In this document: positions 11,931 through 29,438 of the stretch, piece by piece | Numbering within the stretch: the stretch's first letter is position 1 | Layout: the number at the start of each line of letters is the position of its first letter | IMG/VR virus record: IMGVR_UViG_3300028638_000041 | Span: 1 to 29,464 of that record | Length of the DNA: 29,464 nt | DNA from: a virus | Taxonomy: Duplodnaviria > Caudoviricetes | Reading direction: 5' to 3' (one strand) | The notes under the pieces: model-generated | What the model was told of the DNA's origin: nothing | Database searches by the model: none | Seen by the model: only the letters and a program-made list of their open reading frames with translations | Translations under genes and position numbers: made by a program

Positions 11931-12246
11931 ATTTATCTACCTCAACCAGGTCACCATTTGCATCAAACATTAACCCTTCAGAAACAATGCCCAGGCCATT
12001 GCCAATATGTTCGGCATTGTGGCAGTCTTGGCAATCATACCTGAGCAGCTCATGATTTAGAGCTACGTTTGGATCACTTATATTATCTGGAGTCAAGTAC
12101 ACCTTATGATGCACTATCTTTCCGGGTGTGATCTTTCCACGTTTTAGACAACTCTCACACAGTCCATTTACAGACTTGATATAAGCAGCCCTGCACAGCT
12201 TCCACCTTTTACTATCATAGAAGGCTTTCGCAAAATCCTTAGCCAT
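11923..12246 (-). CDS. Terminase-associated HNH endonuclease
   Basis: FY.SKRW...R, GLCESC, VHHK, CQDCHNAEH. Confidence 0.93.
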   Translation of the reverse strand: MAKDFAKAFYDSKRWKLCRAAYIKSVNGLCESCLKRGKITPGKIVHHKVYLTPDNISDPNVALNHELLRYDCQDCHNAEHIGNGLGIVSEGLMFDANGDLVEVDKLV

Positions 12247-12503
12247 TACCTCACACCCTTCATACTGCGGTTGTTATATTCTGGCTTCCACCTAGACGAC
12301 AGCTGCCTATACTCTGACTCAGTAAGAATTCGCCTGGCTGCCTCTCTGAAGTAAGGATCCTTTGGCACTTTACCTTTGCAGATAAGTTTCACCAAAGAAT
12401 CACAACCTGATCTGTAGTTGAAATGTCCATGCTCTCCCCTGCCTTTTACGCATATGATCCAACCGTCATGAACCTTCTTGATGTCGAATTGATGTGGCTT
12501 CAA
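12246..12503 (-). CDS. Hypothetical protein, first ORF of the late operon
   Basis: TTG start at 12503 after AAAGGGGTGGAG; TAATG coupling to HNH. Confidence 0.7.
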   Translation of the reverse strand: MKPHQFDIKKVHDGWIICVKGRGEHGHFNYRSGCDSLVKLICKGKVPKDPYFREAARRILTESEYRQLSSRWKPEYNNRSMKGVR

Positions 12504-12508
12504 CTCTC

Positions 12509-12708
12509 CACCCCTTTCGCCAAATGGCGAGGCCGGTGATTGGCGCATGCGTCAAGTTGCACCGGCCTGTATTTCATCAAGTCTAAGGCCCAGGAGTCCA
12601 TCTAAGTATCAGCCGCGTCTTAGACTTTGATAGCATTATAATGGCCGCCTGGCGAAAGGAGGTGTTTTCGATCGCTGGCGGCCCGGAAGATTGTGTATAG
12701 TTTTTCAC
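12509..12708 (-). ncRNA. Structured 5' leader of the late transcript
   Basis: Four hairpins (12517-12530, 12530-12568, 12576-12631, 12643-12683) between the putative late promoter and the first late ORF. Confidence 0.5.
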
Positions 12709-12714
12709 AATTTG

Positions 12715-12758
12715 AGCATAGCACTATATTTAGTACCACGCACCCCCTAAATACCCTA
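12715..12758 (-). promoter_or_regulatory. Putative activator-dependent late promoter
   Basis: Extended -10 TGcTATGCT (12723-12715), no consensus -35, TAGGG direct repeats (12758-12754, 12749-12745) right after the late activator gene. Confidence 0.55.
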
Positions 12759-13181
12759 CAATTTGTGTTTGATGTCAAGACTAGCTGAAACCTTCTCAAT
12801 CCATTTGATACTATAACCAAGCTCTTCAGCTATCGCCTGTAAGGTTTTCCCTTCAACCAGTCTCTTATATGCCACCTGACTATGGAGACAATCACTCGAC
12901 CCAAGGATACAATCAATTGCCTCCTTAGCCTCTGCCTTATCAATGAGTATTTCCTCAAGAATAAGTAAGTCTTGCTCATTATCAATGTACTGATTTACAA
13001 GCCGTTCAAATGACATTTGAGTGGATCCTTTCGGACCCGTATCATATCTTTGAGCGCTTATTTCCTTTGGTCCGCCCATGAATTTTTTTAGCGTCTCATT
13101 TTGCCGCTTAAGCTCAGCTATCCTTGCTTCAATGATTGCAATTTCATCAAGTAGTTTTTTGTACGTCCTGTACGCTATCAT
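12756..13181 (-). CDS. Late transcription activator (RinA/ArpU-like, C-terminal sigma70 region-4-like HTH)
   Basis: Last early gene before packaging; EGKTLQAIAEELGYS..WI HTH. Confidence 0.8.
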   Translation of the reverse strand: MIAYRTYKKLLDEIAIIEARIAELKRQNETLKKFMGGPKEISAQRYDTGPKGSTQMSFERLVNQYIDNEQDLLILEEILIDKAEAKEAIDCILGSSDCLHSQVAYKRLVEGKTLQAIAEELGYSIKWIEKVSASLDIKHKL

Positions 13182-13476
13182 GGCCAACCCCCATCTTAAC
13201 GTCCAAAAGAATCCAACCCTTTACACTCCAACCGCGACCCATCAACTTGTCAACATGCGTCCGGATCGCCTCCGGTACATCCTCACCAGTTGCCTCTATC
13301 GTGCCAATACACACCTGGATCAGATCCAGCAGCTCACTGTTCAGCCGCTTGGCATCCCCATTCCCGACAATCATGTCGTGAAGTTCCTCGCAAACTTCTG
13401 TATACTCCTCAGACAGTTTCTTAAGATGTTTCCCCCATGTTTCACGCTTCCACAAGATCGGCATTGAGGCTTTCAT
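13147..13476 (-). CDS. MazG-like (all-alpha NTP pyrophosphohydrolase) protein
   Basis: KL.EE..EV.E...ELLDLIQ acidic motif; ATG 13476 after AAGGAGG. Confidence 0.55.
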   Translation of the reverse strand: MKASMPILWKRETWGKHLKKLSEEYTEVCEELHDMIVGNGDAKRLNSELLDLIQVCIGTIEATGEDVPEAIRTHVDKLMGRGWSVKGWILLDVKMGVGHDSVQDVQKTT

Positions 13477-17230: not shown

Positions 17231-17779
17231 CTATTTATAGCTAAAATTAAAAACAGCATCATCAATTGCGTCCTGCTCGATGCCAATGTAGACTAAAGTA
17301 ACCCTGGGTGTTGAATGATTAAGCAGTTTCTGTAGCGTCACGACGTCGCCTGTCTGCTTGTAGTAGTGATACCCAAAGGTTTTCCTCATGGTGTGTGTAC
17401 CGACGCTCTCAAGGCCAGCCAGACGCCCTGCACGATTGATTACCTCGTAAGCTCTGCGCCTGACGATGGGTTTATTCTTCCCCTGCCTGGACTTAATCAG
17501 ATAATCTTCAGGGCTCTTCCCGGCGCAGTACCGGTTGAGCTCCTTAGCCAGGATGCCGTTGATCCGAAAGCGCTTCGCTTTCTTAGTCTTCTTCTCCCTG
17601 ATATCAATGTGATCCCGGCCATACACATCCTTAACCTTCAGCTGAAGGATGTCGCTGATCCGGAGCCCGGAGTAGATGCCCATCAGAAACATGATCCGGT
17701 ACTTTTCATCCCACGCCCCAAGGATCTGCTCGACCTCATCAATCTTGGCTTTTAACTTAATTGGCTGCACTTTATTCAT
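17231..17779 (-). CDS. Second, short (182 aa) tyrosine recombinase, catalytic domain only
   Basis: GLRISD (R), EKKT.K (K), HTMRK (H-x-x-R), LNHS (H), TLVY (Y) all intact. Confidence 0.93.
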   Translation of the reverse strand: MNKVQPIKLKAKIDEVEQILGAWDEKYRIMFLMGIYSGLRISDILQLKVKDVYGRDHIDIREKKTKKAKRFRINGILAKELNRYCAGKSPEDYLIKSRQGKNKPIVRRRAYEVINRAGRLAGLESVGTHTMRKTFGYHYYKQTGDVVTLQKLLNHSTPRVTLVYIGIEQDAIDDAVFNFSYK

Positions 17780-23404: not shown

Positions 23405-23632
23405 TTAAACCTCCACCAAATCGTCCATTTTGGAAAGTTCGTCTGCAAAAAAAATATTCTCAATTTTCAGGCCAAAATGATTTGCTATCTTTTTTGCTTC
23501 AATTAATGAAAATTTAGTATGGCCAGTTTCTTTTTTGTAGTATGCAGATTCCGTTTCAAGACCTAGTAAATTACACATTTCAGTTACAGAAATACCATTA
23601 TCTTTTCTGTATCTTCTTAATGAATCATACAC
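23405..23632 (-). CDS. Cro-like XRE repressor
   Basis: LRRYRK..GIS..EM..LLG.....YYKKE.G...FSL.EAK.IA..F....E.IFF; divergent from CI. Confidence 0.9.
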   Translation of the reverse strand: MYDSLRRYRKDNGISVTEMCNLLGLETESAYYKKETGHTKFSLIEAKKIANHFGLKIENIFFADELSKMDDLVEV

Positions 23633-23661
23633 ATAAACACCTCCTTTCGCTTTCGAAAACC

Positions 23662-23767
23662 GTCCATTTTGGACAATTTAATTGTATATTCCATTTTGGA
23701 AAGTGTCAATACTTTATTTCCTTTTCGGAAAATATATATTTCAAAATTTCCAATTCGGAAGTATAAT
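23662..23767. promoter_or_regulatory. Lysis/lysogeny switch: divergent promoters and TTCC-N5-GGAA-like operators
   Basis: Leftward TTGACA (23709-23704)-17 bp-TACAAT (23686-23681); rightward TTTCAA (23739-23744)-17 bp-TATAAT (23762-23767). Operators at 23662, 23689, 23718 and 23748. Confidence 0.85.
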
Positions 23768-24214: not shown

Positions 24215-25276
24215 ATGGAATTCCAAGATGCTATGAAAAAATTAAGCGAACGTGTTATCAAGTACAAAGATCAGATTACAACTGAGGAAGCAACCAAAAC
24301 AGCACTGATAATGCCTTTTTTCGATACCCTTGGATTCGATACTAGAAATCCTTTTGAGTTTGTTCCGGAATTCACTGCAGATGTTGGCCTTAAAAAAGGT
24401 GAAAAGGTTGATTATGCAATTTTGATTGAAGATAAGCCAGTTGTTTTGATAGAAGCGAAATCTTGCACAGAAATGTTAGATAAACACGACTCACAATTGA
24501 TTAGATATTTTCATACCACTCAAGCCAAAATCGCGATACTAACAAACGGCGTTATTTACAAATTTTTTACAGATCTCGAAGAAACAAATAAAATGGATCT
24601 TAAACCATTTTTGGAAATTGATCTTAGTTCACTCAAAGACAGTGAAATAGCGGAGCTTAAAAAATTTTTCAAATCAAATTTTGATGTTGCGAACATTTTA
24701 TCAACAGCAGAAGAATTAAAATATTTAAGCGCGATTAAACGTCAATTCATTTCACAAATTGAACAACCAAGTGAGCAATTTATTGATTATTTTCTTAGTA
24801 CTACATACGAAGGTAAAAAAACAAAGTCTATTAAGGATAAATTCACTCCGATTGTAAAAAAGGCTGTCTTAGAAGTAATTAATGACACTGTGAGAAATAA
24901 ATTAGAATCGGTTTTATCATCAAAAGAAAAAAGCGAAAGTATCATACCAGTTAAAGAGGTTGTCGAAGAATTACCATTGATAGTCACAACTGAAGAAGAG
25001 ACTATGGCGTATTATATAGTTAAATCGATATGCGCTGAGTTCATAAACCCAGACAGAGTAAGCTATAAAGATACAACAAATTATTTTAATATCATTATAG
25101 ACTCGAAAGTGACCAAATGGATTACTCGTCTGTACTTAAATTCAAGAGCAAAATATATCTCATTCCCATCTAGCTCACCAGATCTTAGAGAAGACAAAAT
25201 TCTTATTGAAAAAATCGAAGACATTTACCTATATAGAATAAGAATAGCTGAGGAAATAAAAAAATATCTAGATTAG
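24215..25276 (+). CDS. HsdR_N-like (type I restriction R N-terminal, PD-(D/E)xK) nuclease domain protein
   Basis: TEEATK.ALI.PF...LG, VPEF.AD, KVDYAI, IEAK, QL.RYF, ILTNG..Y.FF.D. Confidence 0.85.
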   Translation: MEFQDAMKKLSERVIKYKDQITTEEATKTALIMPFFDTLGFDTRNPFEFVPEFTADVGLKKGEKVDYAILIEDKPVVLIEAKSCTEMLDKHDSQLIRYFHTTQAKIAILTNGVIYKFFTDLEETNKMDLKPFLEIDLSSLKDSEIAELKKFFKSNFDVANILSTAEELKYLSAIKRQFISQIEQPSEQFIDYFLSTTYEGKKTKSIKDKFTPIVKKAVLEVINDTVRNKLESVLSSKEKSESIIPVKEVVEELPLIVTTEEETMAYYIVKSICAEFINPDRVSYKDTTNYFNIIIDSKVTKWITRLYLNSRAKYISFPSSSPDLREDKILIEKIEDIYLYRIRIAEEIKKYLD

Positions 25277-25292
25277 ACTTCAAGAGGTTGCT

Positions 25293-25781
25293 ATGACCAA
25301 ATACGAACAAATCATTGATGATTACGAAAATCATAATATTAATCTGTACGAACAGCCAAGTGAAAATTTTCCAAACGATGTTAGCGCTCTTTATTATGAG
25401 GACAAAGATTGTCGTTTTGTAGTATATAACTGCGATATCGACGATGTTGCAGAGAAAAATTGTATTTTAGCTGAGGAACTTGGTCACTATCGCACTTCAT
25501 CAGGAGACCTTCTCTTTAATGAACTTCAGATAAATGTGATGAAGCAAGAAGAGACTGCGCGACGTTGGGCAGATGAATATCTTATTTCACCACATGAAAT
25601 TGCTGATGCTATTAACAAAGGTTGCATGTGTGTGGAAGATCTGGTAGATCACTTTTGTATATCGCACGAATATCTTCATCAAGCTATAGATCGTTACATT
25701 TGTCGTTATGGAATATATTTTGAGATTGATGTTACAACCATGCTATGTTTCAAACCTTTAGGATTGTTAAAACTCATATGA
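25293..25781 (+). CDS. immA: ImmA/IrrE-family metalloprotease (anti-repressor)
   Basis: LAEELGHY.T..G and KQE..ARRWA...LI motifs. Confidence 0.88.
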   Translation: MTKYEQIIDDYENHNINLYEQPSENFPNDVSALYYEDKDCRFVVYNCDIDDVAEKNCILAEELGHYRTSSGDLLFNELQINVMKQEETARRWADEYLISPHEIADAINKGCMCVEDLVDHFCISHEYLHQAIDRYICRYGIYFEIDVTTMLCFKPLGLLKLI

Positions 25782-25873
25782 AAGGCAGCGAAAAAATAAG
25801 CCCCTTAGGTTTTAATAATTACAATTGGGTATTAAAAGTACTAGTTGTAAATTATTGAAAAGGAGGAACAAGC

Positions 25874-26527
25874 ATGAAAAAAAGTTTATCAATCCTATTT
25901 GCACTAGTTCTTTTGTTAACAGGTTGCGGAGGAAATGCCGAACCAACAGCTACCGATTCATCACAGCCAGCAGTCCAAACTGAGCAGCCGGCACCACCCA
26001 CTCCATCAGAAACTGCAACACCAAATCAATCCGAAAATTCAGCATCAGACGACTCTGAAATTGGCGTTTCCCAAGATGTCGAATTTGGAACATTTACAGT
26101 CATTAAGAAAATGAAAGGTATTGATAAAACAATCAGTTCAGGACCATTCGAAGTTACAGTCCACGCAATACAAATTGGTGTTGCTGAACCTAACGAAACA
26201 TATAAGCCAATGTTTGATGAAAAAGATAAGGTTTCAGTTGTAACAATCGAAATGACGGTTGAAAATAAAAGCGATAAGACAAATTCATTTTATCCGGATC
26301 AGGGGACCATTGTGACAAATACTAAAACTCAAGCCTCGGCAAATATTTGGTTCAGTGATTCAGTCGGAGGCGACTTCATTGGTGAAGTCGTAAAAAAAGG
26401 CAACGTTATTTTTTTAATAGATGATGATCCTCAAAATATTAGTTTAATTAAATATGTAATTGGTGGTCCATTCGATGGCGATTTTAATAGCATCGGAGAA
26501 GATATTACATTCGAACTAAGCTTTTAG
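25874..26527 (+). CDS. Lipoprotein (DUF4352-like fold), candidate superinfection exclusion protein
   Basis: MKK signal peptide with LTGC lipobox, Pro/Ser/Thr-rich linker, V.N.S...FYPDQ...GEV.K.G.V.F domain. Confidence 0.8.
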   Translation: MKKSLSILFALVLLLTGCGGNAEPTATDSSQPAVQTEQPAPPTPSETATPNQSENSASDDSEIGVSQDVEFGTFTVIKKMKGIDKTISSGPFEVTVHAIQIGVAEPNETYKPMFDEKDKVSVVTIEMTVENKSDKTNSFYPDQGTIVTNTKTQASANIWFSDSVGGDFIGEVVKKGNVIFLIDDDPQNISLIKYVIGGPFDGDFNSIGEDITFELSF

Positions 26528-26533
26528 TTGCAT

Positions 26534-26572
26534 AAAAAGTGCGCCATACTGTTGAAATTGCAGTATGGCGCA
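26534..26572. terminator. Strong hairpin terminator after the lipoprotein gene (U-tract on minus strand)
   Basis: TGCGCCATACTG/CAGTATGGCGCA 12-bp stem with AAAAA on its left. Confidence 0.75.
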
Positions 26573-26654
26573 TAACGTTTGAGCAGTTGAACTGAACTTC
26601 AGGGATGCATTGAATCAATACCTTATATCAACATTTCCATTTATCAATCTCAGT

Positions 26655-26722
26655 AATATCACTTTTTAGGATTTTTGATATTAACACTGCAATAAATATC
26701 ACTTTTCTTTGATTTTGATATT
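26655..26722. repeat. Two 28-bp palindromic sites AATATCA-N14-TGATATT, 40 bp apart
   Basis: 26655-26682 and 26695-26722. Confidence 0.75.
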
Positions 26723-26767
26723 TTCTTATGAGACTCTAACTATGTATTTTGCATAGAATGCTATTTA

Positions 26768-26830
26768 AAAGGCCATCAGATCCAGATTGTGAACGAGCTG
26801 GACTTCTGGGACGCGTTGAATGATGTTTAG
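26768..26830 (+). pseudogene. Possible BRCT-domain C-terminal remnant
   Basis: KGHQIQIVNELDFWDALNDV* with no start codon or RBS; GC-richer than its flanks. Confidence 0.4.
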
Positions 26831-26949
26831 TTTAGTAATTTAGCTTTTGAACACAAATTATAACATAGCCTCTTGACTACCATGTTTGACCAACATAGGT
26901 TAATTCTATGGTATAATCAATTAAACTTAATTGGAGGCTTGATCTATTA

Positions 26950-27762
26950 ATGAATATTTGGATTGAACATAATCAAAATCTTATAGATTTCATTTCAAAA
27001 CTAATGACAATATTAGCCGTTGGATTTGCAGCAATTCAAGCTTCGTTATTAAAGAGAGATTTTGAGGTAAAAAACAGAAGGGCAAGTATTGAAAAAGCAG
27101 TTGAATTGTCAAAATTTTATGCTGATGAAATTTTAAATGATATTGCATATATTTTTTACGTATACAAAATGACTAACTTGGATCAAATATGCAATAGAAT
27201 CGACTCAGAATTAATCCACTTATTTGATATTCAGGAACTTAGTGATTTGCTTAGCAAAAAAGATATCGATGAATATAATAATAAATTCAAATCAATACAA
27301 CCAGAACTTCTTATTGTTGCTTATTCAAATATTTACTCAATTGAACAAGGGTTATCATTTAATATCTTCGAAGAGTATCAATCTGCAAACCCAAATGCCA
27401 AACGACAAATCGCAAATAAAATGACTGTTAACTTTAATAATATCAAAGGTAGATTAATGAATAATTTGGAATATTTTGCTATGAGTTTTAATGATGGCGT
27501 TGCAGATGAAGCAACCGTTTACCAATCTTTACATCAGTCTTTCATAAAAATTGCAAAACTTTTATATATTGATATTGCGACAATCAACAAATCAGAGTGT
27601 GACAAATACTATACTCATTTAATTGATATGTTTAACAGATGGCATTCAATCTACCTTGAAAATTACAGAGAAGAATGCCTCAAAGAATCGGAACTCCGAG
27701 ATAGAATAAATGAACTTAAGAGTAATAAGACTGAAATATCAAAAAGAAGAAAAAGGCGATGA
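26950..27762 (+). CDS. AT-rich membrane-anchored hypothetical protein (DUF4760-like), moron/cargo gene
   Basis: Own extended -10 TGgTATAAT (26909-26917) and GGAGG RBS; N-terminal TM helix; N.LEYFAM.F..GVADE..VYQSLHQ.F motif. Confidence 0.75.
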   Translation: MNIWIEHNQNLIDFISKLMTILAVGFAAIQASLLKRDFEVKNRRASIEKAVELSKFYADEILNDIAYIFYVYKMTNLDQICNRIDSELIHLFDIQELSDLLSKKDIDEYNNKFKSIQPELLIVAYSNIYSIEQGLSFNIFEEYQSANPNAKRQIANKMTVNFNNIKGRLMNNLEYFAMSFNDGVADEATVYQSLHQSFIKIAKLLYIDIATINKSECDKYYTHLIDMFNRWHSIYLENYREECLKESELRDRINELKSNKTEISKRRKRR

Positions 27763-29362: not shown

Positions 29363-29438
29363 TGGAGCCGGTGATGGGACTCGAACCCGCAACCTACTGA
29401 TTACAAGTCAGTTGCTCTGCCAATTGAGCTACACCGGC
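29363..29438 (-). tRNA. tRNA-Thr(UGU); probable integration target
   Basis: GCCGGTGTAGCTCAATTGGCAGAGCAACTGACTTGTAATCAGTAGGTTGCGGGTTCGAGTCCCATCACCGGCTCCA, 76 nt, TGT anticodon, encoded CCA. Confidence 0.97.

Follow-up and report, generated by a model that had tools for sequence, protein, structure and literature searches.

A structured late-operon leader of a temperate phage carries one anti-Shine-Dalgarno loop with complements in cis and at the cro ribosome-binding site

In the 5′ untranslated region (UTR) of the MS2 maturation gene, an upstream complement is held in a metastable hairpin and later pairs with the Shine-Dalgarno (SD) sequence, which leaves a short translation window (PMC4615214). 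The small RNA StxS is derived from the leader of the late promoter PR′ of lambdoid Stx phages, where it ends at tR′, binds Hfq and is described as acting in lysogeny (PMC7547250), and the sar RNA of P22 and the OOP RNA of lambda block the translation or the stability of the mRNA of a lysis–lysogeny regulator (PMC12197685). For phages related to the one considered here, the late promoter is described as lying directly after the activator gene and the activator as belonging to the early transcript from the cI–cro promoter, and the control so described runs one way, starting at the cI–cro promoter and reaching the late operon by way of the Ltr activator (PMC3753634).

The window, the whole stretch of 29,464 nucleotides analysed here (IMG/VR record IMGVR_UViG_3300028638_000041), is by gene content a temperate siphophage-type genome with a Firmicutes-like host, in which integrase, repressor, cro-position genes and replication genes are followed by leftward late genes, and its closest annotated terminases are those of Terrisporobacter, Caldibacillus and Bacillus phages, at 65–71% identity. 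A structured leader with four hairpins (12504–12708, minus strand) sits between the putative late activator gene (12756–13187) and ORF85, a gene of 85 codons whose TTG start lies at 12503. The original prediction of a hairpin-rich leader with an internal complement of the ribosome-binding site (RBS) proved correct in coordinates and sequences (anti-SD 12650–12664, RBS arm 12509–12522), and it had missed a longer complement of the loop, the RBS of cro. What is new here is this complementarity of the same loop to the cro RBS, perfect over 16 nt. The features are as follows.

12756–13187, minus strand: putative late activator gene, at the position of Ltr/RinA; matches PHROG 36 (transcriptional regulator, E 4e-10) and PHROG 248 (activator, E 2e-4)
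12715–12723, minus strand: extended -10-like motif of the late promoter inferred from sequence, with the start inferred near 12708
12643–12683, minus strand: P1 hairpin (−20.6 kcal/mol); core of 7 bp, inner stem of 4 bp and a loop of 16 nt with the anti-SD
12650–12667, minus strand: anti-SD seed; 12650–12664 is predicted to pair in cis, and 12652–12667 complements the cro RBS
12574–12632, minus strand: H2, long hairpin; three both-sided changes; a tetraloop replaces the interior in leaders L001, L034 and L035
12531–12567, minus strand: H3 hairpin; invariant 8-bp stem, conserved 4×1 internal loop, four differing interiors, two both-sided changes
12517–12530, minus strand: H4, small hairpin, weakened in L001, that contains the cis target's 5′ half
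12509–12522, minus strand: cis target, RBS arm of ORF85; in the long-range helix of the predicted fold
12246–12503, minus strand: ORF85, first late gene, TTG start; close homologues mostly 85–86 aa
11923–12246, minus strand: HNH endonuclease gene, precedes terS; PHROG 119, E 1e-17
23635–23650, minus strand: trans target; RBS of the cro-position gene, complementary to the P1 loop at all 16 nt and forming with it the window's longest long-range inverted repeat
23405–23632, minus strand: cro-position HTH gene (Pfam HTH_3); heads the leftward early operon and diverges from the repressor gene

The leader resembles that of MS2 in cis and StxS, P4 CI, sar and OOP in trans; it lacks features by which each of these is defined and belongs with none of them. 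As in the levivirus leader, an upstream complement held first in a local hairpin is predicted to pair with the SD across several hairpins (PMC4615214). MS2, however, is an RNA phage for which the same source describes covariation in the long-distance helix and experimental proof (PMC4615214), whereas the pairing here is a prediction for the late leader of a DNA phage that shows no both-sided change in the cis helix among six leaders, has a second, distant target and gives no Rfam match. Like StxS, the start of the late transcript is complementary to phage mRNA and to an mRNA in trans, with binding predicted here; unlike StxS as described, the leader has no terminator, follows the position of a RinA-type activator and has the phage's own early switch gene as its predicted target (PMC7547250). 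An intrinsic terminator of the StxS type is absent after the late promoter, as judged by U runs in 12500–12760 and terminator calling in the leader; the same region contains no run of four or more U, which left the antitermination element of the original prediction without a footing. The P4 CI RNA (seqA/seqC) and IsrK of Gifsy-1 are, like this one, leader RNAs with two complementary partners, and theirs controls phage development; P4 CI is described as pairing within its own leader region and causing termination (PMC4825925), whereas the partners here are two RBSs, one of them 11 kb away, and the sequence and structure of the P4 CI/C4 antisense RNA family are lacking, with no Rfam match. The block of a lysis–lysogeny regulator mRNA proposed here in trans is like that by sar and OOP, which are described as having their own promoters (PMC12197685), whereas the seed here is a loop in a distant mRNA leader with a 16-nt complement. 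A ligand-sensing riboswitch or attenuator does not fit, as the interiors of H2 and H3 are freely swapped and there is no terminator. The consensus of HDV-like ribozymes has P1.1-forming G residues right after the 3′ strand of its P1 and a nested P3/L3; such a ribozyme does not fit the invariant A-U-U that follows P1 in all six leaders, and there is no Rfam match.

The putative activator of the window had no NCBIfam match; in L031 and L034, the gene found in its place scores above the TIGR01636 cut-off for RinA. The stop of ORF85 overlaps the start of the HNH gene, which is likely to be translationally coupled to it. Homologues of ORF85 were found in 198 cluster representatives (E ≤ 0.001). An ATG at 12548 was rejected as the start, as homologues begin at the TTG. 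No family match was found for ORF85 in Pfam, PHROG or NCBIfam, and a comparison with annotated phages gave just four weak haloarchaeal virus records. Its structure model (pLDDT 84.9) consists of three strands followed by three helices and had no viral structure match below E 0.1, with a best solved-chain Z of 3.9 and a best atlas value of 0.82. Profile matches occurred in 7 of 401 and 0 of 401 genomes of two samples, and the DNA upstream of eight genomic matches, read by eye, contained no such leader; the homologue L033 also comes without such a leader, which was counted against a double use of the loop. Distant homologues near position 1501 of L098, L099, L101 and L102 lie in Clostridia-class genomes, in settings that appear chromosomal and non-late. 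Elsewhere in the window, a second, short (182 aa) integrase-family gene directly follows the replication initiator (17231–17779), the lysogeny-side cargo (24215–27762) comprises an HSDR_N-type endonuclease, a metalloprotease and two genes without known function, and a tRNA with a UGU anticodon (29366–29438) adjoins the integrase and is a likely attachment site.

Searches with ORF85 and with patterns provided five further distinct full leaders (L001, L034, L035, L032 and L031), which with the window make six (L036 duplicates L031, and L037 is the window again); run contigs added two partial leaders. All six contain P1, in which the stem core and the anti-SD core of the loop are invariant, as well as the H3 stem and a hairpin of the H2 type; H4 is intact in five, and the loop bases next to the anti-SD core vary. 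The cassette stays constant while its flanks change, with a RinA-family activator in L031 and L034, a different protein in the window, and terminases beside the homologous leaders that are 23–32% identical to that of the window. Covariation, which the original prediction had named as a check, was found in the local hairpins and not in the long-range cis helix of the six leaders: in the three leaders with full-length H2 and H3, five of 40 pairs changed on both sides, all via L031, which amounts to one lineage's worth of evidence. Given hairpins that are kept amid changing flanks and the compensatory pairs, the leader is very likely a structured RNA under selection. A TGn–-10-like motif, read by eye, lies upstream of P1 in five of the six leaders, and the anti-SD is therefore likely to be transcribed; one 168-nt RNA-run contig covers 12440–12607, with P1 outside its span. 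The plus-strand TATAAT suggested as an antisense promoter is present but was not called as one; by eye it is exact in two of the six leaders and in none accompanied by TG or a properly spaced -35. An open reading frame on the plus strand behind a perfect SD was rejected, as no start codon follows.

We regard the element as a real, uncatalogued structured leader. The Rfam comparison named in the original prediction returned no Rfam 15 covariance-model match for the leader at E ≤ 1, the leaders of L031 and L035 had none at E ≤ 5, and annotated phages had no DNA match to the leader region or to the cro region. Patterns run against IMG/VR returned 24 stretches with one homologue (cis pair), four with one homologue (3′ half of P1), 54 with three homologues and the P1-like L086 (P1), and 65 with two homologues (H3–H4), and the remaining matches were judged unrelated on inspection; a P1 model gave eight weak matches (19–22 bits) in 151 genomes. 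In the literature, judged by titles and abstract openings in a mostly open-access collection, no paper was found on this element or on late RNA acting on cro. In L086 (682–730), the tRNA-Met of a phage tRNA array is directly followed by a hairpin like P1, which shares the anti-SD core of the loop, has a covarying stem and finds no strong partner within its 7-kb stretch. Strong hairpins with anti-SD-like loops also occur near position 2001 of nine unrelated viral contigs (L043, L046, L051, L055, L065, L071, L075, L080 and L083), where the best downstream duplexes reach just −9 to −17 kcal/mol. The L031 leader carries about 150 nt of extra hairpins after P1 and, between H4 and the SD (about 2400–2470), a tRNA-like insertion with an acceptor-like stem and a T-arm-like hairpin, seen by eye and not called by ARAGORN or Rfam. 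The 4×1 internal loop kept beside the invariant stem of H3 (12531–12567) is a candidate protein or RNase III site, and autoregulation by ORF85 is conceivable.

The anti-SD and the SD are complementary over 14 bp, and the minimum free energy structure of 12490–12730 contains the long-range helix (−78.4 kcal/mol, z −2.87; none of 200 shuffles as stable). When the RBS (−20 to −5) of each of 46 gene starts of the window was compared with any 18-mer up to 250 nt upstream, the best duplex was −25.2 kcal/mol for ORF85 and −15.1 or weaker for the other 45. Nested folding gave −75.9 for the long-range state, −72.8 with the P1 core forced and −66.1 with P1 formed and the SD held open. The hairpins that had been proposed to be mutually exclusive with the long-range helix are strictly so as regards the inner 4 bp of P1 and H4, whereas the 7-bp P1 core uses other bases; as the core and the long-range helix share no bases, a pseudoknotted intermediate is possible. 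Co-transcriptional folding, approximated by equilibrium, pseudoknot-free folds of growing prefixes and not by kinetics, gave P1, H2, H3 and H4 for as long as the transcript stopped short of the RBS, and the long-range form once the RBS was included. Of the two-state gating of the first late gene, a conserved structured leader whose anti-SD can cover the RBS was upheld, and a reversible switch, for which no trigger was identified, was not. The cro mRNA was rejected as a trigger opening the cis lock, since on cofolding it does not free the SD of ORF85 (unpaired 0.01 alone and 0.03 in the dimer).

Conservation of the pairing in cis, which had also been expected, is strong in four of the six leaders, with duplex energies of about −25.1 kcal/mol in the window, −25.1 in L034, −22.1 in L035 and −22.0 in L001, but weak in L032 (−15.7) and lost in L031 (−8.7), where an insertion separates H4 from a different SD. 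Contigs from two of four runs keep both cis partners around a replaced 114-nt interior. Nested folding favours the cis helix in three of the six leaders, all of one P1 haplotype, and in L035 a stronger P1 leaves the loop free, with a cis pairing probability of 0.03. A cis lock is plausible and not universal.

The antisense RNA sar, like OOP, arises from the strand opposite its target. The cro RBS, found by scanning both strands with the anti-SD, is a partner as strong as the cis one and lies 11 kb away. It stands behind a cro promoter that matches 11 of 12 positions (23709–23681), and its 16-mer is the longest complement of any part of the leader. Under three nulls that keep the SD-complementary core (20,000 draws each), a 16-nt complement arises by chance with p of 0.0007, 0.0003 and 0.00085, and the energy of the loop–cro duplex was reached by one of 200 shuffled flanks. 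The 16-mer itself occurs in none of 151 Clostridia-class genomes and in 18 stretches among all IMG/VR contigs, and the DNA examined around these stretches contained no P1-type hairpin. Twelve of the 16 bp lie in the open P1 loop, and all 16 become available when the inner stem opens; the free loop forms a duplex of −18.6 with the cro RBS versus −10.7 with the cis RBS, and P1 alone cofolds with the cro UTR at −36.5 versus −27.6 apart, a predicted gain of about 9 kcal/mol. Three points were counted against a double use of the loop: nested folds of the full leader retain the cis helix in the presence of cro RNA, inverted repeats of at least 16 nt occur somewhere in three of six phage genomes scanned, and any anti-SD pairs with strong SDs. 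Since the full leader keeps the cis helix, action in trans would call for a free loop, whether on RNA still being made, in a form trapped kinetically or on a fragment that might be cleaved off at H2/H3. The cro 5′ UTR has a small hairpin overlapping the target site, and three copies of an operator-like near-palindrome lie in the surroundings of the cro promoter and at the gene's end (23420–23720).

We had predicted that the cro RBS would change along with the loop, and neither of the two near-complete relatives whose loops differ, G788 and G789, bore this out. In G788, the top RBS for its own loop belongs to an HTH_26 gene of the immunity region; the complement is perfect over 14 nt and tracks the letter changed in the loop (p 0.002–0.015), with an ordinary duplex energy (matched 70 times in 200). 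In G789, it belongs to an excisionase-like gene directly after cro, through 11 nt that follow the extra C, an 11-mer that is not significant (p 0.16–0.51). When loops alone were ranked, the own loop put a switch-region HTH gene first in all three near-complete phages versus one of 12 cross pairs (Fisher 0.033 with the window left out), random loops did so in 47, 68 and 40 of 400, and the two relatives taken together have a chance probability of about 0.017, the category of switch-region HTH gene having been defined after the relatives' top sites were seen. Each of the three tested loops has its best energy in its own genome among seven records, and the loop-only energies are unexceptional (92, 169 and 53 of 300 random loops as good). 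The record of G790 comes without its early region. This comparison gives modest support. G789 also has, within its early region, a perfect inverted repeat of 18 nt whose arms are 3 kb apart (L175, 3318 and 6302).

The cassette, its hairpins and both complements are established by sequence and comparison; the leader is likely a brake on the first late gene, and through it late RNA may also weaken early control. The reading that we favour, at a probability of about 40%, is that one anti-SD loop may have two uses, as a delayed cis lock on ORF85 and the HNH gene and in the repression of the early regulator. During transcription, P1, H2, H3 and H4 are predicted to fold locally, with the ORF85 RBS emerging free and the loop exposed. 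The RNA would then refold into the long-range helix and close the ORF85 RBS. Under such a lock, each transcript would allow ORF85 and the HNH gene coupled to it to be translated for a brief period, in the manner of the MS2 maturation leader; one reason for throttling ORF85 may be to restrict the coupled nuclease. In trans, the loop of a P1 that is unengaged or cut out could bind the cro RBS and lower Cro synthesis; with the late activator made from the early operon, as it is in related phages, this would amount to late-to-early feedback. A tentative extension, with the odds somewhat against it, makes P1 a trans antisense seed for late-to-early RNA feedback in temperate Firmicutes-type phages, whose loop would be retuned (to cro, a second HTH repressor or an excisionase-like gene) upon exchange of the immunity module and which would at the same time lock the first late gene in cis.

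Three other explanations have to be set against the double use. It is rather unlikely that delayed long-range anti-SD pairing in cis merely throttles ORF85 and the HNH gene, the cro match being chance or a relic of an inverted RBS copy: P1 and the core of its loop show no variation in L031 and L032, whose cis target is lost or weak, the 16-mer is unlikely by chance, and the free loop prefers the cro RBS (−18.6) over the cis RBS (−10.7), even if the cis helix dominates at equilibrium in the presence of cro RNA, the pairing is kept in four of the six full leaders and two partial ones, the targets in relatives are not cro, and no terminator exists for a small RNA. A leader whose hairpins serve to protect or process the late mRNA or to bind a protein, with SD complements that are by-products of inverted duplications in a hairpin-rich stretch, would agree with compensatory changes that all lie in local hairpins and never in the anti-SD helix, with the free exchange of interiors and extra hairpins, and with the P1-like hairpin of L086, which sits in a tRNA array without a strong partner in 7 kb; this is unlikely, since two separate long complements would both be idle and the anti-SD core of the loop is invariant while neighbouring bases vary. 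That P1 is an antisense seed against early regulator mRNAs, perhaps also against strong SDs of the host, with the cis pairing incidental, seems quite improbable. The cis complement reaches 6 bp past the SD and is kept in most leaders, and in the window cis pairing would sequester the loop; yet L031 has lost its cis target and the best site of its loop is an early gene, and the stronger P1 of L035 leaves the loop free (cis pairing probability 0.03).

Even if just the cis lock holds, the leader would be an uncatalogued structured element resembling the MS2 timer in a DNA phage. Three natural loop/target pairs exist and are open to allele-swap comparison. If the favoured reading of two uses is true, one seed in an mRNA leader would serve a cis and a trans target, and binding of the loop to the cro RBS would add an RNA-made return signal to a control that otherwise runs one way.
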